DNA of 64,000 bases from IMG/VR virus record IMGVR_UViG_3300012984_000011; one strand, written 5' to 3'. Shown one piece after another: positions 1,694-61,613 of the stretch. A program made the position numbers and the translations under genes. A model generated the notes under the pieces. It did no database searches, was not told the DNA's origin, and saw only the letters and a program-made list of their open reading frames with translations. The stretch's first letter is position 1, and every line of letters starts with the position of its first letter. The stretch comes from an uncultured virus (IMG/VR IMGVR_UViG_3300012984_000011). Taxonomy: Duplodnaviria > Heunggongvirae > Uroviricota > Caudoviricetes.

Positions 1694-2116
1694 ATGGAAC
1701 GCCACCTAGTCACCTGTCCGGTCTGCAAGACTGATCAACACATCTATGGGGGTAAGATCTGCAACCATGAGGGATACGGCGGAATCCGTTGCCTGGGCAG
1801 CAGGGCGCCGCTCAAACAGCCCAACCAATTGACCCTCGAACTAGTCAAGCAAGCCTGCAAACCGATCCTCAACCAGGATGATTGGTTGGAAGGGCCAGAC
1901 TGTAATACGATCGCTCGGGTGGTCTTCTACAGCGGGCGGACCGAAGTGTTGACTGTCACGTTTCATTCCGAATTGATGTACACGATCACCCAAGCACCGG
2001 TCGGGGTCCGCCACCTGCAAGACGCCATGACCTACGGCCGAGCCGTCAGTCTGATCCAAGCCCTGAAGCTACAGATCTCCAACCTGCAGGAATTCGTGGG
2101 CAAACAGGTGATTTGA
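1694..2116 (+). CDS. hypothetical protein with N-terminal Zn-finger-like motif
   Basis: CPVC...H...C; start directly after upstream stop. Confidence 0.65.
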   Translation: MERHLVTCPVCKTDQHIYGGKICNHEGYGGIRCLGSRAPLKQPNQLTLELVKQACKPILNQDDWLEGPDCNTIARVVFYSGRTEVLTVTFHSELMYTITQAPVGVRHLQDAMTYGRAVSLIQALKLQISNLQEFVGKQVI

Positions 2117-2146
2117 TCAGACTTTCGGTGTAAGGAAGGGAACCAG

Positions 2147-2338
2147 CTAGGCCTTGGCCTCTACCGTGAAGGCCTCTCCCCGCCCCATGGCGGCCCTCAA
2201 CCGCTCCACATCAGCCCGTAGGCCTTCCGGCAGATAGAGCTCTTCCAAGGGCACCTCCAGCTGAGCCAAACCACTAACAAGCTCCGCCCGATTCAAAGTC
2301 CCGTTCCGCCACCCTGCTAGGATCTGCTCTACCGTCAT
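2147..2338 (-). CDS. hypothetical protein
   Basis: 63-aa ORF filling a gap. Confidence 0.55.
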   Translation of the reverse strand: MTVEQILAGWRNGTLNRAELVSGLAQLEVPLEELYLPEGLRADVERLRAAMGRGEAFTVEAKA

Positions 2339-2383
2339 CCTGTCCCTTAAGTTCCAAAACCGACTTCCGTTCTAACATGCATC

Positions 2384-2641
2384 ATGAAGACCGCCAAGTT
2401 GGTTACTCGAAGGATCCGCCCTCTCTACCGGCATGACTGCGATGAATGCCGCTTCCTCGGCCGCCTAGATGGCAAGGACCTCTACTGCTGTAGCCGTACA
2501 GGCGATTTCACAGCCCGCTTCGGCTCAGGAGAAAGCCAATACGGCAGCCTTGGTACCCTCACCCCAGGGGGCTCGCCTTACAGCCTGGCCCGCCAACTAT
2601 TGGACCGTCGCCTTCCCCCCAACGAATACATGACGGCATGA
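2384..2641 (+). CDS. hypothetical protein (HDCDEC motif)
   Basis: follows class A motif at 2347. Confidence 0.7.
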   Translation: MKTAKLVTRRIRPLYRHDCDECRFLGRLDGKDLYCCSRTGDFTARFGSGESQYGSLGTLTPGGSPYSLARQLLDRRLPPNEYMTA

Positions 2642-2874
2642 ATCGTTGCCCCAAATGCGGGCTATTGAGTATCCTGGTACTCAATAGCCATTGCCCCCAG
2701 CATCCAACCATGACCCCTTCCAAACCCATCACAGTGACCGAATACGCCGTACTGGCTGCCAGTACGTGCCACAACCTCAATGGTTCGGAACGAAACCTTC
2801 TGGCCAGAATCATCGAACGAGAGATCTTGCGACAAGACCGTAAGCGGTCATCCAAACCCAAACCAATTGCTTGA
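2638..2874 (+). CDS. hypothetical protein
   Basis: ATGA overlap with upstream gene. Confidence 0.55.
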   Translation: MNRCPKCGLLSILVLNSHCPQHPTMTPSKPITVTEYAVLAASTCHNLNGSERNLLARIIEREILRQDRKRSSKPKPIA

Positions 2875-2903
2875 TAGGCCCCTTTGGGCTAAGCTGAGGA
2901 CCG

Positions 2904-3032
2904 ATGCCTCAAAAGCCCAAAGGGATCCTGGCCCGCCTCGATGCTAGGATGGAAGAGCTGGTCAACAATGTGGTGATCTGCCTAGCGTTGGCGATCGACC
3001 GGGGGATTCGAAAATTACCGAAGCTGTGGTGA
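2904..3032 (+). CDS. small hypothetical peptide (42 aa)
   Basis: GAGGA-N3-ATG, MPQKPKGILARL...; read manually. Confidence 0.4.
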   Translation: MPQKPKGILARLDARMEELVNNVVICLALAIDRGIRKLPKLW

Positions 3033-3069
3033 GCCTTAACTTCTCCCCACCATGGCCGTTCTATCATCA

Positions 3070-3240
3070 ACAGGGCGCTCAGCCGTCACGGCAAGCCCGC
3101 CCTTCTGACCCACGGGGACGGGGGAATCCATCCTCCAAAAGGTCCCCAGACCGGATCTCCCCGAAGCCGTCCCTTCTCCGTCTGGGCTAGCCCCGTGGGG
3201 GAACCGAACCAGCCGCTTCATTGATATAAACGGCTGTCCT
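3070..3240 (+). ncRNA. candidate structured non-coding RNA
   Basis: class A motif at 3036-3063 with no ATG at the expected place; multiple GC-rich helices. Confidence 0.5.
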
Positions 3241-3260
3241 TCTGAAGAGTTAAGGGCCTA

Positions 3261-3494
3261 TCAGTACCAAGCTAACAAGTAGGTGGCTCCTTGCCAGCTG
3301 CTGGTCTCCCAAACCGCTTTGGCATCAATGTCGGCCATCCCACCCAGCATGCGGTATCGGCCGAAGCCAGCCTCCTGGAACTCCTTGTACTCCGGCCCCA
3401 CCCGTCGCTCGGCCCGCTCCTTGGAGGGATACATGCCAACGAAGTTCAGGTTGATGCCAGCGTTCTTTTCAGTCTTCAGCAACAAGAGGAACAT
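3261..3494 (-). CDS. hypothetical protein
   Basis: 77-aa ORF. Confidence 0.55.
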   Translation of the reverse strand: MFLLLLKTEKNAGINLNFVGMYPSKERAERRVGPEYKEFQEAGFGRYRMLGGMADIDAKAVWETSSWQGATYLLAWY

Positions 3495-3523
3495 GCTGAT
3501 AGAACGGCCCCAGCCTCGAAAGA

Positions 3524-3823
3524 TTAAGGCACCACCTCTTCACCGTCCACCAACAGACCGGCCGAATAACCGTTTTGGATCGGAGTAGCCTGGATCACCA
3601 CACTGTCGCCATTGAGGAACTGGAGGCACAGCGTATCGTTCCCATCCTTATCCGGATAGGCCGTATAGCCCGCCAAGACCTTTTGGGTAACCAAATAGTC
3701 CAGCTTGTTTTGGGGACGTAACCGCTCCAGCGCCTTATCGACATCCTGACCCACTTCCTTACGGGTTTGGAAAATCTGGGCCATCATGGCTTGCTCGGCT
3801 TCATCCAGCTTGGTGTTCGGCAT
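3524..3823 (-). CDS. hypothetical protein
   Basis: minus-strand class A motif (TTAAG at 3857, ATG +34). Confidence 0.7.
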   Translation of the reverse strand: MPNTKLDEAEQAMMAQIFQTRKEVGQDVDKALERLRPQNKLDYLVTQKVLAGYTAYPDKDGNDTLCLQFLNGDSVVIQATPIQNGYSAGLLVDGEEVVP

Positions 3824-3894
3824 GCCAGACCATACGGCCCAACTGCCAACCGCTTAAGCCTGCCCATCACCATCCCTCGGTGTAGAACCACCCT

Positions 3895-4101
3895 ATGCCG
3901 GTCTTCGTCCAAGCTTTGGCCTGCTGTGAAGTCCAGGGCTGCAACAAGGAAGAACCCTTCCTCCTAGGCCTAGAACCTGTGGTGGGGATGAGTGGCCCCG
4001 TCATGGGCAAGAAACTACCGCCTGGCTGGAGACGGATCCTAAACCTCTGGGCCGCCCACTCGACCGTGGTGTGTCCCGCTCATTCGATCGAATTCCCATG
4101 A
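3895..4101 (+). CDS. small Zn-binding-like protein, tandem copy 1
   Basis: CEVQGC...LPPGW...CPAH; class B motif at 3879. Confidence 0.75.
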   Translation: MPVFVQALACCEVQGCNKEEPFLLGLEPVVGMSGPVMGKKLPPGWRRILNLWAAHSTVVCPAHSIEFP

Positions 4102-4316
4102 TCACCCTCCAAACCACCATCACTTGTGAAGTCGGTTGCAGTCGCCAGCAGGTTTGCTCGATCGAGCTTCAACGCCTCGCCCTAGCCTCACAACAACTCA
4201 TCCTGAGCCTACCTCCCACCCAGCTGCCAGAGGGCTGGACCCTCCAACCTGACTACCGAGGCGGACACCGAATCGCCTGCCCCGATTGCTCATACGATCA
4301 CGGAAGCGAGTTCTGA
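4098..4316 (+). CDS. small Zn-binding-like protein, tandem copy 2
   Basis: CEVGC...LPEGW...CPDC; ATGA overlap. Confidence 0.75.
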   Translation: MITLQTTITCEVGCSRQQVCSIELQRLALASQQLILSLPPTQLPEGWTLQPDYRGGHRIACPDCSYDHGSEF

Positions 4317-4558
4317 TGCAACTCTACATCCTAGCTACCGCCATGTGCCAACACCCCGGCTGCCCAAGGACCGAACAACTAAAACTTGAACTCGCTCCCA
4401 CCTTCCCGTTCTTCCAACAACCATTCCTATCCCCACGCTACAATGAATTGCCCGAAGGTTGGGTACAAGCATTCGATTGGAAACTGTTCTGCCCCGATCA
4501 TGCTCAACCATATACTCAAGAAGAAGGTGGCACCACCGTAGATTCGGCCGAATCTTGA
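4316..4558 (+). CDS. small Zn-binding-like protein, tandem copy 3
   Basis: CQHPGC...LPEGW...CPDH; TGATG overlap. Confidence 0.75.
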   Translation: MQLYILATAMCQHPGCPRTEQLKLELAPTFPFFQQPFLSPRYNELPEGWVQAFDWKLFCPDHAQPYTQEEGGTTVDSAES

Positions 4559-4697
4559 GCCATCACCTCCAACCAGACGATCCGAAGCCATGGGCAGAGA
4601 CATGATAGAGCGATGCACACCGTCATGTGGGCGTCACTCTATTTCCGCACTTCCGAGCAATCATTTTGGCAAATCGTAGGTAGGGGGTTCGATTGGT

Positions 4698-4731
4698 AGG
4701 AGGATGGTCAAGGCTGCTTGACCATCCTCCT
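4698..4731. repeat. perfect 15-bp inverted repeat
   Basis: AGGAGGATGGTCAAG-gctg-CTTGACCATCCTCCT. Confidence 0.9.
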
Positions 4732-4733
4732 CT

Positions 4734-4749
4734 CGGCACGGTTCTTGCG
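4734..4749 (+). promoter_or_regulatory. possible sigma54 -24/-12 promoter
   Basis: cGGCACG-gttc-TTGCg versus consensus TGGCACG-N4-TTGCW. Confidence 0.4.
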
Positions 4750-4937
4750 AATCAATATAGTCAAGCAATATGGACTAATTTCCATCTGTTGAGTTAAATG
4801 CTGGTTATTATTGGTCTTTCGAGATTTTCGGATTTCTTGTCGATTTCGGGTTTGGCAAATGACCATCAAGAACACCCAACAGGGCCTGCTTCGCCTGCCA
4901 GGTTGGTCGGTTTGGGAGTTTGATTTTGAGTATCCAG

Positions 4938-5315
4938 ATGAGTAAACGTTGTCTTTTCGCCATCTGTTTGGTATTGCTGTCTTGTCAGGCCGACCCCACT
5001 CCTCCTCCTCCGGTGATGGACGTCACATGTGCTGATGGTCAGCATCTATGTCCGCATGGGAAGGTATGTACGCCTGATAGCCAGCAATGCGTCACATCGG
5101 TCCAATGGTGTGCTGACGGGCAGCATTGGTGCACGGGTGGGCGGGTGTGTGCACCTGACCTGACATGTGTGGACCGGTTATCTTGGTGTCGGGATGGGGT
5201 TCATTGGTGTAGTGGCGGTCTGATGTGTGGGGATGACCTACAGACGTGTGTGAGTCGACGGCATGATGATGGTCCTGACCTGTTGCCGGTCTACTATTGG
5301 GTGTTGTTCCAGTAG
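4938..5315 (+). CDS. lipoprotein with three Cys-rich repeats
   Basis: lipobox LLSC; 3x C.DG.H.C..G..C..D. Confidence 0.75.
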   Translation: MSKRCLFAICLVLLSCQADPTPPPPVMDVTCADGQHLCPHGKVCTPDSQQCVTSVQWCADGQHWCTGGRVCAPDLTCVDRLSWCRDGVHWCSGGLMCGDDLQTCVSRRHDDGPDLLPVYYWVLFQ

Positions 5316-16392: not shown

Positions 16393-17004
16393 ATGAAAAA
16401 TATGGTGAGATTGTTCGGTATGTTGCTTGCGTTGCTGGTTCTCAGCAGCACCACACAGGCGCAGGCGCTTCCCAGCTGGTGCTACGACTATACGTCCTAC
16501 GACAGCTTCAACGGCTGGGGTAATTGGGGTCTTTGGAATGTCTCGGTATCGGGTGTCACCAAGGTTGGCACCACTGGAAGCAACAAGAGCCCGCCTGGGG
16601 CAGTGTTGATGTCGTTTGCCGATAGAGAGTCGAATGGCAACTTTATGGCGCTTGACAGGTATTTCACGCTAGCAGGAGACGCTAACTCTCGTTACGATGC
16701 TTGCCGAGGCAGGACCTCCTCAGGTCCGTTTTCACAGCAATCCAGCAATGCCAAGTTCTGCAGTGCGGAGGTGTCGGTCCGTACCTCTCAAGGTGCACAC
16801 GTAGCGATCGTCTTGCTGGATCCAGATTACTTCATCATGTCGCAGAAAGAGATTGATCTGCCGAAATCCACCGCTTGGACTAGGATCTGGACTCCAGAGG
16901 TGTTGAATTGTAGGCAAGATGTGGTGGTTCGCCTTGCGTTGGTCAAGACCGCCACATCTGCGTCAGTCCAATTCGATGACTTTCGAATGGACTGGTGGTA
17001 CTGA
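16393..17004 (+). CDS. secreted protein, probable beta-sandwich/carbohydrate-binding-like fold
   Basis: Sec signal ...AQA; canonical AAGGAG SD; own terminator. Confidence 0.8.
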   Translation: MKNMVRLFGMLLALLVLSSTTQAQALPSWCYDYTSYDSFNGWGNWGLWNVSVSGVTKVGTTGSNKSPPGAVLMSFADRESNGNFMALDRYFTLAGDANSRYDACRGRTSSGPFSQQSSNAKFCSAEVSVRTSQGAHVAIVLLDPDYFIMSQKEIDLPKSTAWTRIWTPEVLNCRQDVVVRLALVKTATSASVQFDDFRMDWWY

Positions 17005-17031
17005 CGACGTTCTGAAGTTACGACCGTGACC

Positions 17032-17060
17032 AAGAGGCGCTCGAAAGGGCGCCTTTTTCT
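17032..17060 (+). terminator. Rho-independent terminator
   Basis: AGGCGCTC-gaaa-GGGCGCCT followed by T-run. Confidence 0.85.
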
Positions 17061-17108
17061 TTGGTGTATGGGTTAACGAGAGGTCCCTTCCGGCCGTCTA
17101 TTGTTGCA

Positions 17109-27038: not shown

Positions 27039-27796
27039 CTGCTTGGCGAACCATCTCAATTGTCTCGGCCCTGACATGGGCTCTAACCATCGCTTGTTCG
27101 AATGACGCCGAACCGATTCGGCCAACCTATTGGGGTCAAGGTGGGGTCAATCAGTTGATCTGGCCCACCATCAAGCTCCTAGAGGCCGGACAAGCAGGTG
27201 AGGGTGGCTCTGCTGATGGTGGCCAAGCAGGCCAGGCTGGCAGCCATGAGGGCGGCTCGGCGGGTGTTGAGCTGGCAGGGGCGGGAGGCTTGTCTGAAGA
27301 AGACTGTCAGCTTCCTGAGTATCTGGAACAAGCCCATCAGCTGGAGATAGGTCTAGGTAGACCGGCCGTAGAAGATACGGTCAGCACCACGGGTTCCGTC
27401 CCTTATGGGACGATCGTCAAATTCAGCAAGTACAACAATTGGCGTTGTGACCATCAGCCATTTTGCGATTACGCCGTCCAGGCCCCGACTGACGAAGGTT
27501 TCCCTGAGACGAGACGTTATTGGGAACCCGTTAGGTGGCAAGGCCTGCCTCCCGACGGCAAGATTGGGCAGTGGCTTGGTCTCTGTACGCTGCCTCAGTG
27601 GACCTCTCACGGCACCTGTGGAGGCTTCTACCGAGACGGAGATTACGTCGACTACCGTGATTCCAACGACCCGTATGCCGAGCGTTTCGTTTGGCAATGT
27701 CGAGTTGGATGGTCCAGTGCCTGTGACGTTCAGCCTCCAGGCACTGGGTCTGCTTGGGTCAATGTGTCAGACACTATCCATTGCTACGGCTATTGA
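27035..27796 (+). CDS. lipoprotein with Gly/Ala linker and Cys/Trp-rich domains
   Basis: lipobox-like TIAC; AGQAGEGG linker; C-terminal WQC...PG..SAW resembles small carbohydrate-binding modules. Confidence 0.7.
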   Translation: MTAWRTISIVSALTWALTIACSNDAEPIRPTYWGQGGVNQLIWPTIKLLEAGQAGEGGSADGGQAGQAGSHEGGSAGVELAGAGGLSEEDCQLPEYLEQAHQLEIGLGRPAVEDTVSTTGSVPYGTIVKFSKYNNWRCDHQPFCDYAVQAPTDEGFPETRRYWEPVRWQGLPPDGKIGQWLGLCTLPQWTSHGTCGGFYRDGDYVDYRDSNDPYAERFVWQCRVGWSSACDVQPPGTGSAWVNVSDTIHCYGY

Positions 27797-30700
27797 TCAG
27801 TGTAGCCCGCTTCTCCACACGGCATAGTTCTGACGGAGCCTCGTACCGCTCAAGGGTGTTGTTGAGATTAAGATTGGTACATTGGTGTCGTAGTTGAACA
27901 TATCCATACCAGCGACGTACATGTAGCCTAAGGAAAGGACTTCAATCCCACCACCGAGGTCGCAAGAGTTGCCAACGATAGTGGCAACTGTATTGTCGAC
28001 AGAGGGGTGCCCGACACGAATTTGGCTGTGTAGGTGCGGATAGTCCCCTTCGTCACAATGCTCGACATTGTTACCTAGGATGCGGGGGCCGATGTAGCTC
28101 CAAGCACTTGCCAGAACGTAGATCCCTGGAAGACTGCAGTTGTCGATGCGATTGTTAGAGATTTCGCAAGTACCACCGAACGTAGTGTTGGTCGATACAA
28201 GAACGCCGCATGCTATCCAAGAACTGATGGTGCAATCTCTCACAACCAAATTTATGGTGGTGGTGAGCGAATAGCAGGCTACCCCGTCACCATCTGTCGC
28301 TAGATTCAGATTACCTATCAGAGTACAACGCTCGATTGTTCTCCAGACAACGTTGTTGTCGCTGCCAACGAACACTCCGTTACCGATCGGGCAGTTGGAT
28401 GAAAGGATAGCGGTAGAATCTGACAACACCCAACCTTGCGGGTGGGCACCAGAGTCCGGAAAGGTGCATTCGCAGAAAACCCCACCATCGTTGGTGCTGG
28501 CTTGTGCTGCCGCCTCAAAGTTACCGTATGCGATCTTTGAATAGCGGGCCACATTTTTGGTCTTGTAGTTGACAGTTGGGTATAGGATGAACCGCCCTTT
28601 TGGATACGTACCCAAGCCGGTAGCTTGCCAATCGCCCTCTGCCTGTACATCCTCTACTTCGCAACGGTCAATACCGATGAATGCGAAGTCCGCCCTATCA
28701 GAGTCTTGGACCATACCTCCTAGGGTGATCCTTGATACTCTAGTGTTATGGGCGTACACCGTGAAGGCAGCCCACGCCCTAGAGTCCCCACCGTAACTGA
28801 TCTCGGATGCAGGAAGCCCATAATGGAGTGTTCCGTTGAACACTCCAGTGATGTCTGCCCAACCCATCCTAACGTTATTGATCAACACACTACGTATGCC
28901 GTTATTATCTACGGAAGTTGCCCAAGTCCTGGGTCCAATGTAGAAAGGGGTGTTGATACCGCTGTAGATGCTGGGACTTGCCAACCATTGCCCACCATTG
29001 ATTTCCAGATCAATGGTGGTGGCGGCTCCTCCAGTACCAGAACTAGTCAGATACATGAGGATCGCCCCACCAGCTCCACCACCCCCCACGATAGCGTCAG
29101 ACCATACGTTGCAATCCAAATACTTGACGTTGATTCGACTGGGGACCGAACCACCACCTGGGAATACATTCAGCACTCCGCTATTGGCGTTGGTTACGCT
29201 GTTGGAGACCGCCACACTATTGCCCGCGCAACGTAGAGTGCATCGTACGAAAGTCAGATCAACCCATGAGGAGTTGCTGCTTGGGCCGAAAGCAGTTAAC
29301 GTACGATCAACAACTCCTTGGAAAGTGCATTCCGAGAACACGAGATGCCCCAAATATCCGCCACTCCCACCACTGATGCTGATCAGGGGGTTAGCGTCAC
29401 TACTTTGAGCTTCGAAAGAAGTCCGTTCAATGACGGTCTTTAGACCTTTGGATTGACGCCAATCAAGGTAGCTGTTCTGCACATAGCAGTCTCGCATCCC
29501 AAGAACAGCGGCCGTAGAATTCATGATAGCAAACCCCAATGGGGTGCTGCCAGATCCTTGGAGCAACACATTCTCCAAGAACAGTGATCCAATTACTTCG
29601 AAGCCACCATTACCATTGATGTTCAGCTTCGAATTGTTGCTGGTTAGGTTGTAGCCAGATCCTCGGATCTTCAGAGTGCAGTCTGCAGGTATGATGAGAG
29701 TGCTGCCGGCCCCGTTGTTGATGTCGCAGCTAGCGACTTTCATCAAGAGGCTGAGCTGCCACGGAGTTCCAAGAGGGCCCACCACAGTGTTGGCATAGGT
29801 GACGGCATCTCGAACGGCAGACGCACCATTGAAATCGCCGAATGTAGTTGTGCCGTTACCGATCGTGAACTCCCAAAGATGAATGATTCCGATGGTTGAG
29901 GTAGACCCTACTGTACTGACCGTGATAGGAGACGTAGCCGCTACGGTTGAAGTTCCGCTGGCACCCGTTGGTCCAGTAGCACCAGTAGCCCCTGTGGCAC
30001 CAGTCGATCCTGTAGCTCCCGTTGCCCCTGTGGCACCTATGGGGCCCGTTGCACCTGTGGGTCCGATGGGACCTGTAGCCCCTGTCGGCCCCGTTGGACC
30101 TATTGGCCCCGTTGCGCCGGTCGCCCCAGTAGCTCCTGTGGCACCCGTGGCACCTGCAGGTCCAGTTGGTCCAGCAGGTCCCGTCGGGCCAGTTGCACCT
30201 GTGGTGCCTGCTCCAGTGGCGCCAGTCGCACCAGTGGGACCTGTAGGTCCGGTCGGACCAGCGGGTCCTGTGGGTCCAGCAGGTCCCACAACAGAGGAAG
30301 GGTTCCATCTAGAAAGCGAATTGCTCCAGGCAAGTACTTGCGTATCAAGAGCCCCGTCTTGTTGGATACCCACAAGAGAGACACTGTTGCGAATCGTAAG
30401 GGTTGCTCCGCCCGCTAGTGTGATGGCACCAACTGCCTTTGCGGAGGCGTGGCTCTCACCATCAATCGTCACAATCCCTGTCCCCGTGAACGTCACAGCT
30501 GAGTCGAATACGGTGTTCTCAATGAGAACGTTCGCTCCCACACCGATGCTGCCAGAAGCCAGGTGACAGTTATTTAGCTGCGAAGTCGCCGTAAACGACA
30601 CAGCACCAACCACGTAGTAGTTGGATGCTTGGATGGCACCAACGATCGATGCCGTTGACTTCAACGCACCATTAAGACCCGCCAGTGAACCGCCTAGTCC

Positions 30701-33700
30701 GTTTAGGATAAGGGTCCAGCGGTTGCCGGCAGTGGACGTCAGGCTCACAGCCCCATTGATATCTGTGTTGTTCAGGATCAGAGAACGTCCACCAGTTGGC
30801 GACGTGAAATCACCGCTCACCGTACCAGTAACGATCAGAGTCGTCAGGGTAACGGCCGCACCAGCACCACCCGTACACACGATGTTGCCGTTGATGGTAG
30901 TCCCCACCTCGGCCTCAGACCGGACCTCCCAAACACCAGTTGTTGGGAACGTGACGTTCTCAACTGTGGTCGAATACGGCGCCATAAAGATCAGCGCACC
31001 AGTCGAAGGAGCGGCCGCTATGGCGGTGGTGATGCTTGGATATGGGTTGGCTTGAGTGCCGTTCGAGAATCCAGTGTAGGCCGGATCTACGTAGAAAGTG
31101 GCGCCAAAACGAGCTGAGGTGAACGCAACTGCGGCAGGATCGTTCAGCAATACGAAAGCACAATCGGCATTAGGGTAGCTTCGAGGCACATTTGAATAGT
31201 TCAAATTGTGGCCCGTCATGGTGATCTGTTGAGTGGCCAGAATACCCAAACTTGTAACAGAGTCTGTGACGACGGTTGCCCCACTCGTCAGAGCGAAGCC
31301 AACCGCATAGTTGGTCCCAAACCCATATTGCTGACCAAATATTTGAATCCCACATCTAGGTCCGACCGTGATGGCTGTTGTGGATCCATTTCCGTTAACC
31401 CACTCACAATCAGCGATCGATAGATTGGCCGGCACAACAGCTGTAGTACCAGAGGCGTAGATCGAACCGCCGTTCATACAGTTGGCGACATAGATCTGTG
31501 TTGTCGAGTAAATCAACACTTGATTCTCGATCACACATCCAGCAAATACGGGCACCACGCCGCTGAACATCGACACGGGTTGAGTGCCTGTAATCTGGCA
31601 GTTTTGCAGCTGAACGTTACCAGAAACACGGGCCGTTACTGAGCCAGAATTGCCAATCTTGCATCCGACTAGTGCCAATGAGGCACTGCCCCCTACCTGA
31701 TTGACGATCTCTGCCCCGAAAGGCAAAATGGTGTCGTATACGTGAATCTGCCCACCAAGTGGATGACCGCTGGTTCGGATCTGGACACGATTGATCGTCA
31801 CCTGTAAGGTGTCCATCACCACTGTTGAGCTGAGGCCGACTGTCGTTTCGCTGAACGAGGTAGCGTTGAACCACTTCTTGACGAAAGCGTTAGTTGAGCT
31901 TGTCAGGCCAGTGATATAGCTGATTGCTCCTGTGGAGCCTCCCGAGGTGCTTCTAACACGAGCTTTGTCGATAAAAGTACCGGAGGCAGTTTGAATGGCA
32001 CCTCGGGTGGGAGTGGCAGATCCAACCGTGTTGGTCACACTAGACAGGGTGATCGGACTACTGGAGGTAAAGTCCCCCTTCACATCGAAGACGTAGTTTG
32101 AGCCAACGGGGATCGAGATGCTGAGCTCAAGAGCATTATAGGTACCGGCCGCAATGAACACGGTAGTGCTTTGAGCGGGGATGTACCAGGCCCCATTGGG
32201 GTTGAGACGATTCCGGAGCTCGTCAAGGCTCGCAAGAGCGGTACCGCTTGTCTTACCATCATTGTTGTCATTGCCCGTACTAGCGTTGATGTACCAAGCA
32301 GCTTGCGAAGAAGCGGTGGTGGTTCCGAAAGGAATTGGATTAGGATCATTCGCTAGAGCGAAGACACAATCAGCATTCGGATAAGACCTGGGCACATCCA
32401 CGTAGTTGAGATTCTTCCCAGCCATCGTGATCTGCTGAGTAGCAGGTATGCTCAGGATAGTGGTCGAATTGGTGACGACATGACCACCTGCCGTCACGTT
32501 GTAGCCGACCGCATAATTGGTGCCGAAGCCGAACTGCTGACCTGTGATTCTCAGATAGCTGCCAGGGAATACCGCGACAGCCGTTCCAGAGCCATTCACC
32601 CATTCGTTGTCGGTAAGTATGAGACTCGCTTGAAGAGCGGCAGTCGGATCTCCCAATTCAACACTACCTCCATTGAAGCAGTTGGCTTGAAATTCCGAGA
32701 CGTTGTTATAGATCAGTGCTTTGATCTCAAGCACACACCCTGCAAAAACGGGAGAACTTCCTTGAGCGAATCCCAAGACTTGAGTGCCGGTGAAACGGCA
32801 ATTCGCCATCTGTATGTTGCCTGATACTCGGCAGGCATTGGGGAGTGTCCCGCCGATCTGGCATTGAGAGAAGACAAATTGAGAACTGCCTCCCAAGAAT
32901 AAGCATTCCATACCGTTCGGTAGGATCGCATCTCTAACGGTGATCGCCCCGCTGAGGGGGTTCCCTACAGTGCGGATCTGGACCCGATTGATCGTCACCT
33001 GTAGGGTGTCAACCGTTACGGTCGTGCCGTTCACAATGTTGACTTGAGATGTAGAGGATTCTAGGTACCAGCTCTTGACGAAGGCATTGGTACTGCTCGT
33101 TAGACCTGTACAATAGGTGATGGCTCCAACGGAGGCACCTGAAGTTGAACGGATACGAGCCTTGTCGACGAACGTGCCCGAAGCGGTCTGGATGCTACCT
33201 CGGGTTGGCGTAGTTGAACCGACTGTGTTGGTCACACCTGAGAGGGTGATGGGGGCCGATGAGGTGTAGGCACACACCACCTCGAACGTGTAGTTTGAAC
33301 CAACGGGGATCGTCAGACTTAGTTCCAAGGCATCATAGGTACCAGCCGCCAAGTGAACGATTGTATTCTGTCTAACTGTGAGGGTGGTGCCGCCAGGACA
33401 TAGGATCGCTGCCAACCTCTCCGTTGTTCGGAGGGCAGTGCCGGCGGTCAGACCATCGTTGGAGTCGTTGCCGGTAGAGGCGTTGACGTACCAGTCCGTG
33501 GCCGTCTGTGCCGGGAACCCGTAGGGGATGCCTAGCGGGTCGGAGGCGAGGGCGAATATGCACTCTGAGTTCGGGTACGAGATCGGAACCTGGGCGTACG
33601 TGTGCTTGTGCCCGACCATCGTGATCTGCTGGGTCGCGAGGATCCCTAGGTAGGTGGACGAGGCCACAGCCACGGAGGTCTGCGCGGTCAGGGCGAATCC

Positions 33701-35137
33701 GACGGCGTACGGGGTCCCGAAGCCGAACTGCTGGCCCAAGATATACATCTGGCACCCGTAGTTCAGGGTCACGGCGGTTCCGGAGCCGTTCACCCACTCG
33801 GTGTCAGAGAGGCTTAGGCTCCCGGCACCAAACACGCCGGCCGGGTCGCCTCCGGTGACAGTCCCTCCGTTGAAGCAGCTCCCGACGGGGATGACGAGCG
33901 CGGTCAGGAAGGTTATGGGGCACTCGATGACGCACCCCTGCAAGACGGGGGATGAGTTGCCGTGAAAGGAGACCGCGAACGGTGAGATGCTCGCCCCGAC
34001 AAGACGGCTGTTCCGGGCCTGCATATTGCCGACGAGCTTGGTGTTCGTCGACGTCCCACCGCCGATCTGGCATTGCGACAGGTAGACGGCGGCGCTGCCG
34101 GCAGCAACGTTCACGAACTCGGCGCCGGCCGGCAGGATAGCGTCCCAAACACTCACAACGCCGCTGAGCGGATTGTTGGTGGTTCGAATTCGTAGGCGAT
34201 TGATCGTCACCTGTAGGGTGTCGATGACGACTGTCGTCCCGTTCGCGACGTTGACGATCCCTAAGCTGTTGGGGGAAGTCTCCTGAAACCAGGTTTTGAC
34301 GAAAGCGTTGGTTGAGCTGGTCAGGCCAGTCACGTAGGTGATTGCCCCAACAACCGCACCCGAGGTACTTCTGATTCTTGCCTTATCGACAAAGGTTCCA
34401 GCAGCTGTCTGGATGCTACCTCGGACAGGAGTCGCACTTCCAACTGTGTTGGTGACGCCACTCAGCGTGATGGATGCAGATGACGTGTAATCACACAGGA
34501 CCTTGAAGGCGTAATTTGAGCCAATCGGTATGTCTAGATCAATGTCAAAGAAGTTGTAGGTGCCGGCCGCAATATGGATTGTAGTGTTCTGCGCCAGAAC
34601 GAGCTTCGCCCCATTCGGGTTTAGACGTGCAGTCAGCTCTTCAACTGTAGCAAGAGGGTTGCCGACCTTACCATCATTGTTGTCGCTGCCCGTTGAAGCG
34701 TTGATGTACCAATCAGTCTGCAGTGCTAGGGAGTGACTGGCACTAAAGAATGTCCAGGTCGTTAGATCGCTGTTTAGAGAGTAGTAGACTTTGGTCAGCT
34801 TGCTGTAGACCAACATTCCCTCTCGCCTAGCCCCTGAGGGGATGGCGTTTCGAGCTGTGTTGTCAGCTACGATCATGAAGCTGGAATCACCCCCTATTGA
34901 TGTGATGGCCCAATCGGCATTTGTGAGACCCGCCCCCAATACATAGAATGTCCCATCATTGGTATGTACCAACATACCTTGTTTTCTAGAACTAGCTGGG
35001 ATCAAATCTCGTTCAGTAGTATCGGCTACCGCTACGAATCCGCCCAATACAGATGCGGCACGAACTGCCGCATTAGCGTCTCCAGGGACAGAGATTGGGG
35101 CAATAACTGTTACGTCACCAGGTTGATTGATACTCAT
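27797..35137 (-). CDS. giant tail fibre/adhesin-like protein (three ~400-aa repeats, collagen segment, beta-helix-like C-terminus)
   Basis: 2446-aa ORF; WY(I/V)NASTG.D.NDG x3; (GPT/GAT/GPA)n. Confidence 0.85.
29954..30286 (-). repeat. collagen-like Gly-X-Y coding repeat
   Basis: about 36 triplets [12 protein letters not shown]. Confidence 0.9.
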
Positions 35138-41278: not shown

Positions 41279-41604
41279 TACATACTAACGTCCCACCCTA
41301 GATTCTTCAGCCCGTTGTGGATGTGCTCGGCCGCGATCGTGTTGGGCCCACCTTGGAAGGGTACACAGGGAGATATGAGGAACCCTCGGTAGCCCCAACT
41401 ACGACACCAATGGCCCGACATACCTGCCTCATCGATGGCAGTGAGGATCTTCTGGTAGGTCTTGGGCAGCGGCTTTCGCTTGAAGTTCAGGCAGACGGCA
41501 TCTCGATTGGCCGAGCCACCATCCTTCATCAGATGAACTTTGCTCGCGGCCTCAACCTGTAAAGTTCGAAGGTCGGAGGTCAATTTTGACAAATCTATCG
41601 TCAT
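41263..41604 (-). CDS. hypothetical protein
   Basis: minus-strand class B motif (+16); DGGSANRD motif. Confidence 0.75.
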   Translation of the reverse strand: MTIDLSKLTSDLRTLQVEAASKVHLMKDGGSANRDAVCLNFKRKPLPKTYQKILTAIDEAGMSGHWCRSWGYRGFLISPCVPFQGGPNTIAAEHIHNGLKNLGWDVSMYYQLD

Positions 41605-41651
41605 GATAGACCTCTACACCAAACATTCCATCGGTGTAGAGGTCTATCATG
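41602..41651. promoter_or_regulatory. divergent class B promoter pair (19-bp perfect inverted repeat)
   Basis: CATGATAGACCTCTACACC-N12-GGTGTAGAGGTCTATCATG, includes both start codons. Confidence 0.85.
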
Positions 41652-42698
41652 CGGACCTTTTCGAACTTTATTCTCAACTCCCCCAACCCATCTTTTGATG
41701 CGGATGACCTTCTCTATGGGTTGTGGTTGCTGGACAGTCTTGAACCTGGCGCCAAGCCCTTGGTGGTCAAGACTTTTGAGACCAAGCCTCAGGCTGATGT
41801 ATGGGAAGCCTTGGCAGATGACGGCTTTCGCCTCATCATGGATTTCCAAGAGCATCGGGTTTACTTGAACGATGTCAAGCAACTGGTCGTTTCTAACCCA
41901 AATGCCTACAGCGCTATCTATGTCGGGGGCCGAGACAAGGCAGATGTGACGGCTCTGTATGACACGCTGAAAAAGAAATACGGTCAAGCCTCTATTCCAA
42001 CCAACAACTTGAAGCTATTGGTGAGCAGCAATACCGGATATAAGCTGACCAACCTGTCAGCCCCTGCAGAACCCCTGCAGACCGGCAACTATTCTCCCCA
42101 GGTTCTGCAAAAGTTCAAACATCTGACCAAGCAGTTGGTAGCTGATCGGCCTAGGGGGAGGATCGGGGTATTGTCTGGTTACCCAGGCACTGGGAAAACC
42201 TATCTGTTGCGAGCCATCCTCAACGAGTATGTTGAGGATGTCGATTTTGTGCTCATCAACATTGAGCAATGTCTTCAGGTGAGCCAGAATTTGCACAGAT
42301 TCATGCAGATGTTGGCTACTCGTCCCGAAAGTGGGTATGCACGGCGAAAAGTAGTGTTGCTTCTGGAAGACGCGGACTCGGCCATCGCACCTCGTTCGGC
42401 CAACAATCTCTCGGCCATCCAAGCCATCCTCAATTTCGGCGACGGCCTGATGGGGGACGCTCTGGACGTCCGGCTGCTGGTAACAACCAACGTCCGCACG
42501 GTGGAGATTGACCCTGCCATCCTCCGCAAGGGTCGTTTGATTGCGCACATCGAGGTAGGTGCGTTGGACCCCGCACAGGCTAATGCGGCGTACCACCGAA
42601 TCTCTGGTGGCAAAGAAGGCTCCTACAAGCAAGCCACCACCATTGCCCAAGTGTATGATGATGTGGGTAAGTTGGAGGAAGTGCAGGCGGCTGAATGA
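41649..42698 (+). CDS. AAA+ ATPase (paralog of 25041..26057)
   Basis: GYPGTGKT, LLEDAD, TTN...IDPAILRKGR. Confidence 0.9.
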   Translation: MRTFSNFILNSPNPSFDADDLLYGLWLLDSLEPGAKPLVVKTFETKPQADVWEALADDGFRLIMDFQEHRVYLNDVKQLVVSNPNAYSAIYVGGRDKADVTALYDTLKKKYGQASIPTNNLKLLVSSNTGYKLTNLSAPAEPLQTGNYSPQVLQKFKHLTKQLVADRPRGRIGVLSGYPGTGKTYLLRAILNEYVEDVDFVLINIEQCLQVSQNLHRFMQMLATRPESGYARRKVVLLLEDADSAIAPRSANNLSAIQAILNFGDGLMGDALDVRLLVTTNVRTVEIDPAILRKGRLIAHIEVGALDPAQANAAYHRISGGKEGSYKQATTIAQVYDDVGKLEEVQAAE

Positions 42699-46999: not shown

Positions 47000-47451
47000 C
47001 TCGACCTAAACGAGACCCTAAGACGCTTCGCTATGCGGCTAGGTTGGCTCGTCGACAACTTAAGCTTGCCGAGGGTAGCGTCTTGTCAGAATGGTTTCGT
47101 CTAGACTTGTTGGCCCGCCAACTGGTTGATGAAGCTCGAAAGATTGAGAAGAAGGTCAAACCGGTTCGAACGCCAAAACAGTCGACCGAACCTGAAAGTT
47201 TGATTGCCTATAATCTCGTATGGTTGGACAACGGTGTGGGGCATGGTGGGGGTCTGTTTCGCACCATGGAGGAAGGTGAGGCCTTCCTCCGCTTCTATGC
47301 TGAGGCTTACGTCGCTTGGGTGACGGTGCGAGATCCTGAACATCTGGGATGGCTCAGAGATCCTCAGTATGAGCCTAAGATGATGGCCGAATACGAGGAA
47401 ATGACCCAGTGGCAGGCCGATCACGGTCTGATTGGATCGAAAAGGTCTTAA
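46996..47451 (+). CDS. hypothetical protein
   Basis: GTGA overlap. Confidence 0.65.
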   Translation: MTRPKRDPKTLRYAARLARRQLKLAEGSVLSEWFRLDLLARQLVDEARKIEKKVKPVRTPKQSTEPESLIAYNLVWLDNGVGHGGGLFRTMEEGEAFLRFYAEAYVAWVTVRDPEHLGWLRDPQYEPKMMAEYEEMTQWQADHGLIGSKRS

Positions 47452-60945: not shown

Positions 60946-61215
60946 ATCCTCAGGTAGTTTGGACATGGCACATTTCCAGCAATACATGTAGGTGATGCGT
61001 CGACTGTAATTGGCTCCGCCTTCCGTATTGCTGCATTCAGGATCGGCACAAGGCCATGACAGGTCATTTTTGGCAAACACATCATCTTCTTCATTACAGC
61101 GTGGACAAGATCGACGCTCTCCTGTGAACTCGTGTAGGCATCTACACACCCAATGGTCGATCTTGATCCAGCTGGTAGGGCCGACGCATTCATTGGGGTC
61201 AGGGATTCGCCACAT
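60940..61215 (-). CDS. Zn-finger protein
   Basis: several CxxC; minus arm of the 40-bp palindrome. Confidence 0.65.
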   Translation of the reverse strand: MWRIPDPNECVGPTSWIKIDHWVCRCLHEFTGERRSCPRCNEEDDVFAKNDLSWPCADPECSNTEGGANYSRRITYMYCWKCAMSKLPEDL

Positions 61216-61217
61216 TT

Positions 61218-61257
61218 TGATGATCAATACACCGAAATTTCGGTGTATTGATCATCA
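61218..61257. promoter_or_regulatory. 40-bp perfect palindrome, divergent class B promoter pair
   Basis: TGATGATCAATACACCGAAA|TTTCGGTGTATTGATCATCA. Confidence 0.85.
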
Positions 61258-61613
61258 TGGCAATTGGTCCGTATCTAAATCCTTTGGCTAGATTTTACGG
61301 TGGAGCAGCTCAGACCGTCGCCCATCAAGGAGTTGTCGGCGCTACCGTCAGTGGTCATCAGGTGACGATCCCAGGAGACCCTTGTCCTTGGTGTAGCGGC
61401 AAAGAATACAAGATTGTCAGCCAAGAGAAATTCTGTGCAGGTTGCAACCTCTGTCATGAGGATGCGGTCTACCGTCGTGAGAACGTGGCCCGTCGAGACG
61501 GCAACAACAGCTTGCTTTGCCAGGGTTGTGAACAACCGTTCCCTTATGCGGAACCAGACCGTAATGGCCGGTTCCGGTGCTTCGGCTGCAAGCTATCAGA
61601 AACTCTCGAATAG
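61257..61613 (+). CDS. Zn-finger protein
   Basis: four CxxC; class B motif at 61242 (+15). Confidence 0.7.
   Translation: MAIGPYLNPLARFYGGAAQTVAHQGVVGATVSGHQVTIPGDPCPWCSGKEYKIVSQEKFCAGCNLCHEDAVYRRENVARRDGNNSLLCQGCEQPFPYAEPDRNGRFRCFGCKLSETLE

Follow-up and report, generated by a model that had tools for sequence, protein, structure and literature searches.

Judged by its sequence motifs, the interval 3036-3240 of the window (the whole 64,000-nt stretch of uncultured viral DNA that was analysed) is better described as a pair of convergent promoters than as an exceptional pseudoknotted RNA fold. A near-consensus promoter-like site points rightward with no open reading frame behind it, and a weak copy of the same signal points back at it from the opposite strand, strength being taken here as motif score only. 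We tentatively read the locus as a cis-antisense, transcription-interference module, a reading that we consider plausible while placing it short of probable.

The DNA of the window is almost that of G001, a linear viral record of 308,895 bp, with which it shares 94% of sampled words and 100% identity across 2900-3300. Proteins of the 3036-3240 neighbourhood are also encoded on a contig of 475,623 bp, which makes this a very large phage; among the sequencing runs listed for the element stretch, three are of soil-metagenome DNA and none is of RNA. A Pfam family was assigned to 11 of the 34 window ORFs of at least 150 aa, and these include AAA ATPases, a DNA methylase, an integrase, PTH2, a PDZ domain and a 2446-aa giant with collagen repeats; a distant-mode blastn search with 2000-5000 returned no match among phage records. 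The element lies in a gap of 228 bp between two convergent early-type gene blocks, and its stretch has a GC content of 63%, compared with 53% for the phage. Upstream of it, a 42-aa ORF (2904..3032, plus strand) ends with a stop codon 3 nt before the rightward promoter. On the other side, and convergent to the rightward site, is a 77-aa leaderless-type gene (3261..3494, minus strand) with a class-A promoter of its own at 3527-3500 and its ATG at 3494. Between this gene and the element no canonical terminator was found, and its transcript would therefore read into the element.

Both promoter-like sites belong to a recurrent motif, class A, for which a weight matrix was trained on 24 ATG-bearing sites. 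With a cut-off of at least 14 bits, the matrix returned 33 hits in G001, compared with 1, 0 and 1 in three shuffles. At 26 of the 33 sites an ATG follows CGTT by 5-11 nt (mode 9), and in 23 of these 26 the distance is 8-9 nt. The string CCGTTCTA, with at most one mismatch, was matched 73 times (34.5 +/- 5.5 in shuffles), and TTAA-N17-CGTT occurs 16 times in the window, 13 of these with an ATG 7-9 nt after CGTT. Six pattern matches to the motif with its ATG, as opposed to none in a reversed control, came from two further large phage records, G002 (155 kb) and G003 (83 kb). The number of sites relative to the shuffles, the ATG behind 26 of them and the occurrence of the same motif and ATG in two further records together argue that class A is a functional start signal. 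The form found in G002 and G003, which have no DNA similarity to the window, is TTAAC-N15-CCGTTCTA-N5/6-ATG, and its sharing points to a group of phages with a common ECF-like, leaderless-type early promoter.

Promoters of ECF sigma factors, according to the part of the source drawn on here, carry AAC in the -35 element and CGT in the -10 element with a spacer of 16 +/- 1 (PMC3426412). Both sites at the locus, 3036-3063 and 3253-3226, read TTAAC-N15-CCGT, that is, AAC-N16-CGT, and thus fit this sequence signature. The kinship is one of motif, and class A differs in that its sites lie 8-9 nt before an ATG; as the ATG stands where transcription should start, class-A messages are probably leaderless or nearly so. 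No Sigma70_r2 domain was found in G001, G002 or G003, which are partial records (65%, 32% and 17% complete, respectively). With 33 sites in 309 kb and its presence in two other large phage records, the promoter class is the more useful by-product of this analysis, offering a handle both on the early transcription programme of these phages and on telling real genes from spurious ones among their many orphan ORFs.

The rightward site comprises TTAAC (3036-3040), a 15-nt spacer and CCGTTCTA (3056-3063) on the plus strand. The first-pass annotation had recognised here a near-consensus class-A motif, and the matrix confirmed this, scoring the site at 33.4 bits, eighth of the 33 in G001 and first among those without an ATG. 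AAC occupies the position at which the ATG would be expected. Equally well founded was the observation that neither a start codon nor a plus-strand ORF precedes the convergent gene at 3261-3494: the sole plus-strand ATG in 3040-3262 is at 3052, within the promoter itself, and the only GTG or TTG codons after 3064 are at 3195 and 3221. Among sites of at least 20 bits, this is the only one lacking any same-strand ORF before a convergent gene. Of the other ATG-less sites in G001, those at 114638 and 303205 have a Shine-Dalgarno-led gene slightly downstream, and that at 224917 is followed by a 45-nt leader and then a long ORF. The natural product of a near-consensus promoter with no start codon or same-strand ORF behind it is a non-coding transcript, which we predict to span 3069-3240 on the plus strand, its 5' end (A3069 or A3070) being set by analogy with where the ATG falls at other class-A sites. 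The earlier estimate of ~170 nt for this RNA has as its basis a single weak hairpin, CAGCCG/CGGCTG (3210..3236, plus strand; 6 bp, 15-nt loop), and no canonical terminator was found on the plus strand across 2000-5000. Apart from this hairpin, the sequence offers no terminator at which a discrete short transcript would end. Further, the loop and 3' arm of the hairpin are the complement of the -10 part and ATG of the leftward promoter.

Two other class-A sites are of interest for what follows them. At 100-127 of the window (plus strand), a strong site of 30.1 bits has no adjacent ATG, an 80-nt leader with a hairpin lying between it and the ATG at 216; the 100-215 segment contains a long GC-rich hairpin, with arms at ~137-146 and 179-188, plus a CCCTTTTCC run before that ATG, and may act as an attenuator or give rise to a small leader RNA. 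Outside the window, at G001 304237-304404 (L021 4237-4404), a site of 21.3 bits, likewise ATG-less, precedes by ~64 nt a tRNA-like element, which ARAGORN called as tRNA-Tyr(ata) and for which the only Rfam match was tRNA-Sec, at 24.4 bits and below threshold. The placement of this element suggests that class A may also drive RNA genes. L021 also carries a tRNA-Leu(taa), at 3361-3434.

The first-pass annotation overlooked the leftward promoter. On the minus strand, TTAAC (3253-3249), a 15-nt spacer and CCGTTTAT (3233-3226) are followed after 4 nt by an ATG (3221-3219), which places the site (3226..3253) canonically for an ORF of 61 codons, stop included (3036..3221, coding 3221-3039), that is fully antisense to the predicted plus-strand transcript. 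That this ORF has a class-A-like promoter of its own is what opened the antisense, convergent-promoter reading. The inferred starts of the two face-to-face promoters are ~150 nt apart, and no other pair at such a distance occurs among the 33 listed G001 sites. The leftward site is weak, scoring 18.4 bits (rank 32 of 33) despite having been among the sites on which the matrix was trained. Its ATG offset of 7 after CGTT is seen at no other ATG-bearing site, and is one nt closer than at any of them.

The ORF itself may be the functional unit: a small leaderless protein gene (61 aa, 3221-3039) with a weak promoter of its own, to which the rightward promoter would be an added regulator or a relic. 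We regard this as possible, if rather doubtful, and as compatible with the interference reading. Its layout, with the stop of the 77-aa gene at 3261, the promoter at 3253-3226 and the ATG at 3221, is that of the neighbouring leftward genes; an ATG follows 26 of the 33 class sites, and counting the ORF as a gene would shrink the gap to the compact spacing found elsewhere. Its codon score of 0.08 per codon falls within the range of the called small neighbours (0.03-0.36), where genes scored 0.18 +/- 0.08 and antisense frames -0.10 +/- 0.16. Against these points stands the composition of the frame, whose GC content is flat across the codon positions (0.66/0.61/0.67) and lacks the dip at the second position seen in the gene set (0.57/0.45/0.58). 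The open frame is itself uninformative, since 2015 of 5000 dinucleotide shuffles also kept it open, and its last 11 codons and stop merely complement the rightward promoter. The low rank of the leftward promoter and its singular ATG offset likewise count against a gene.

Searches with the predicted protein were similarly unfavourable. The exact sequence was absent from a collection of ~15 billion predicted proteins, whereas all six neighbour ORFs, including the 42-aa one, were present in it, from up to four contigs; this absence suggests that no gene call in those assemblies produced the ORF. No homologue was found by word sharing (k-mers), and neither Pfam at E <=10, WD40 included, nor PHROGs at E <=1 yielded anything. 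HMMER against 1.84 billion representatives gave four hits, all of them long repeat proteins matched in 6-12 stretches. An apparent likeness to WD40 proteins among these was rejected, the library E-value being a sum over 10 repeats: the best single segment of the top hit reached 30.8 bits with 14 of 28 residues identical, a score significant only as one pairwise comparison and not at library scale, and the second hit was an unrelated repeat protein. The single-sequence structure model was a lone hairpin (pLDDT 64.8, pTM 0.28). Protein-level conservation of the antisense ORF, which the first-pass annotation had set against its own RNA reading, was thus not detected by k-mer, HMMER, Pfam or PHROGs searches, and the coding evidence is thin.

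The interference reading draws on the geometry of the promoters. At the level of motifs, the rightward site (3036-3063) converges on opposing units served by the sites at 3253-3226 and 3527-3500, which its transcript would overlap. The strong promoter would start an ORF-less, GC-rich RNA at ~3069-3070, and this RNA would be fully complementary, through 3221-3036, to leftward transcripts arising from the weak promoter and from the upstream operon. Polymerases leaving the strong promoter would traverse the weak one, causing transcriptional interference in cis, and the antisense RNA may in addition pair with the tails of leftward transcripts and dampen them. Such pairing could also keep leftward read-through away from the rightward genes. 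Should the 61-codon ORF prove to be non-coding, the antisense RNA would be left with only a 3' tail as its target.

Short cis-antisense RNAs are familiar in phages, one example being the Sar RNA of P22. In phage 186, as described in the portion of the source used here, the strong pR promoter lowers the activity of the weak convergent pL 5.6-fold, an interference governed by how strong the two promoters are relative to each other (PMC6593788). The locus shares with pR-pL an arrangement in which two promoters of unequal strength face each other over a short distance, the stronger being expected to depress its partner; it differs in that both 186 promoters drive protein-coding operons of the lysis-lysogeny switch and their interference was measured, whereas here the strong promoter is ORF-less, the starts are ~150 nt apart, the promoters are of ECF-like type and the arrangement is known from motifs alone. 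The OOP RNA of lambda offers a second comparison: transcribed from a convergent promoter, it overlaps the end of cII by 52 bases and suppresses CII, according to the section of the source cited (PMC5869508). In both, a promoter convergent to a coding unit yields, or here would yield, a small non-coding RNA whose sequence is complementary to the tail of the transcript made from the other strand. OOP, however, has a terminator hairpin, tO, and its 52-base overlap is with a known gene, while at our locus no terminator was found, the overlap would extend along the whole of the opposing ORF, and whether that ORF codes is doubtful. No relation of the element to OOP was found by sequence or through Rfam. 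If the interference reading is true, very large and almost unannotated soil phages would share the face-to-face promoter logic of small temperate coliphages, built in this case from an ECF-like class that otherwise starts leaderless messages.

Comparison with relatives bears mainly on the history of the region. The window carries 72 differences from G001 in 2150-2724 and a further 34 in 4148-4232, and the element sits between these patches, in a 1423-bp block (2725-4147) that is identical between the strains. Such sharply bounded diverged patches suggest mosaic recombination among co-occurring strains in this early region of small genes, and the identity of the element in G001 carries no information beyond the recombination that shaped the region. 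One of the metagenome runs (X3) contains the same variant, on a contig with 99 other letters and 4 gaps; the first 40 of these differences all lie left of 2540. Searched in full, the G002 and G003 records gave nothing homologous to 2300-3900 apart from 28 nt that match the promoter. At the nearest partly syntenic place in G002 the convergent genes abut with no spacer, indicating that the module is not needed at convergent junctions.

Searches for further copies led largely back to the phage itself. The 77-aa protein has one relative of 79% identity (P0011), on a 543-bp contig; in viral contigs, neither of the flanking proteins (77 aa and 78 aa) had a close relative. An alignment built from the 77-aa protein and this relative matched four loci on 4-6 kb contigs through residues 4-18 only, and was set aside as spurious. 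No exact 21-mer of the element occurs in viral contigs. A gapped pattern found four loci in metagenome contigs, of which two are the phage itself (the G001 record and an identical 2-kb contig); the other two, inside a high-GC gene and with no further similarity, were rejected as chance matches.

The same mosaicism raises the alternative, in our estimation an unlikely one, that the locus is a leftover of cassette shuffling in which the gene behind the rightward promoter, or just the ATG, was lost and nothing functional remains. In T4-type phages, promoter-bearing (promoter-stem-loop) cassettes mediate shuffling, and the small early genes here each carry a ~30-bp promoter that is a possible recombination site, in keeping with the sharply bounded patches relative to G001. 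From the expected ATG position, the plus-strand frame is open for 51 codons, to 3222-3224, and is codon-aligned with the minus-strand ORF. This openness carries no information, however, as 3256 of 5000 shuffles also kept the frame open, and the frame has a codon score of 0.02 and a flat GC content at its three codon positions. Nor are the internal direct repeats of the element significant (49/500 and 270/500 shuffles), and the promoter is still near consensus at 33.4 bits, which is not required of a relic.

The remaining explanation is the one nearest to the first-pass annotation, which had proposed a highly structured, ORF-less RNA with a probable pseudoknot, acting as a ribozyme, decoy or switch. 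All 12 motif and helix strings that it quoted were found in place, as were the inner arms GCCG (3082) and CGGC (3089) and the 3' hairpin arms CAGCCG (3210) and CGGCTG (3231). It had also recognised no tRNA, SRP, 6S or tmRNA hallmarks, and the searches found no described family for the element: Rfam (4227 models) gave no match at gathering threshold over the whole window, and ARAGORN found no tRNA or tmRNA gene in it. At E <=10, the 2850-3350 interval had one Rfam match, at chance level, with a snoRNA model (14.5 bits, where the gathering threshold is 50; E 3.1).

The claim of exceptional structure fared less well. On the plus strand, 3064-3245 had a minimum free energy (MFE) of -71 kcal/mol with a z score of -1.88, which 7 of 200 shuffles equalled, and the MFE structure accounted for 0.0023 of the ensemble; on the minus strand the z score was -1.76. 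Against a background of 2128 windows of 180 nt across the 64-kb window, with MFE regressed on GC, plus-strand windows over the region ranked from 469 to 1146 (residual z -0.74 to +0.06), and minus-strand windows from 60 to 345 (z down to -1.9). The stability of the element is therefore ordinary for this phage, being explained by its 63% GC content. A covariance model of the element found only itself in 547 kb (the phage and two relatives). Perfect complementary words are in modest excess, with 16 of length 6 against 6.3 expected from shuffles (16 of 1000 shuffles reached this count) and 6 of length 7 against 1.7 (34 of 1000).

Individual helices are nonetheless well defined within the ensemble. 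The 5' hairpin (3073..3102, plus strand), formed by helix A, GGGCG/CGCCC, with the inner GCCG/CGGC pairing, is part of the MFE structure with pair probabilities of 0.5-1.0, and begins 4 nt after the inferred transcript start. A domain at 3109..3199 (plus strand) is closed by the 9-bp helix B (CCCACGGGG/CCCCGTGGG), whose probability, like that of helix A, is ~1. Inside this domain, two pairings compete. The arms 3145-51 and 3180-86 pair at a probability of ~0.9 as an ordinary nested helix, extended by three further pairs, whereas helix C (3119-29/3153-63) has a probability of 0.02 in the nested ensemble. An alternative pairing of 3115-21 with 3167-73, also put forward in the first-pass annotation, has a probability of 0 there.

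For the pseudoknot, the arms exist. In steric terms, an H-type arrangement of helix C and 3145-51/3180-86 seems feasible, its loops being 15, 1 and 16 nt long. Helices A, B and C together contribute -45 to -47 kcal/mol and the 3145-51/3180-86 duplex adds -11.3, giving the pseudoknotted conformer ~-56 to -58 kcal/mol with no penalty yet charged for the pseudoknot, compared with -59.9 for the MFE fold. There is thus no energetic preference over nested folds, and the models would make the pseudoknot possible, not probable, on energy alone. The element is like H-type pseudoknotted RNAs and small self-cleaving ribozymes in possessing the pseudoknot arms, and unlike them in lacking both an energetic preference and any Rfam ribozyme match at E <=10.

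We consider it improbable, on balance, that the locus encodes a stand-alone structured RNA of ~130-170 nt that acts in trans, possibly pseudoknotted, whether as ribozyme, decoy or switch. In its favour are the strong ORF-less promoter, a 63% GC stretch in a 53% GC phage, the early 5' hairpin and near-certain closing helix, the excess of complementary words, the steric plausibility of the pseudoknot and the tRNA-like element 64 nt behind another class site (outside the window). The GC-corrected rank (469 of 2128), the modest z score, the small share of the ensemble held by the MFE structure, the improbable helix C, the self-only covariance match, the Rfam search with no more than a chance-level match and the lack of a canonical plus-strand terminator speak against it. 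What survives of the earlier proposal is a promoter with no ORF behind it and the lack of any described family; a structure-driven function is not supported, folding being ordinary and the pseudoknot not favoured. As a candidate for a new RNA class, the single-copy and not exceptionally structured element is weak. The excess of complementary words and the helices of probability ~1 leave room for a structure-dependent role. Under the interference reading, the GC-rich hairpins A and B would serve as stabilisers or as aids to pausing or termination, not as a catalytic or ligand-binding fold. A most specific version, in which the strong early-type promoter would yield a GC-rich RNA of ~130-170 nt with a 5' hairpin and pseudoknot-capable core, of no described family, that acts in trans on the host (for instance, as a decoy for a nuclease or defence protein), with the weak convergent promoter as its off-switch, strikes us as very improbable. 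Separately, a CCTTCTGA motif seen after two hairpins was dropped, as its 21 copies in G001 showed no association with hairpins.

The folding survey of the window also picked out stretches elsewhere. The most over-stable after GC correction was 41491-41760, on both strands (residual z down to -4.6), where a perfect 19-nt inverted repeat (41602-41620/41633-41651) is nested in an 11-nt one (41560-41570/41660-41670); these repeats lie just before and overlap the start of an AAA ATPase gene at 41649. Second was 61081-61400, downstream of the PTH2 gene, with z ~-4.1 on the plus strand, a perfect 40-bp palindrome (61218-61257) and further imperfect inverted repeats. GC-corrected z scores of -3 or below were also reached on the plus strand at 16891-17070, 30031-30300 and 47221-47430. 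The second of these three, a 68% GC stretch, lies inside the gene for the 2446-aa ORF (27797-35137, minus strand), which carries collagen triple-helix repeats (Pfam E 2e-13) and abuts, with no spacer, a convergent plus-strand gene ending at 27796.
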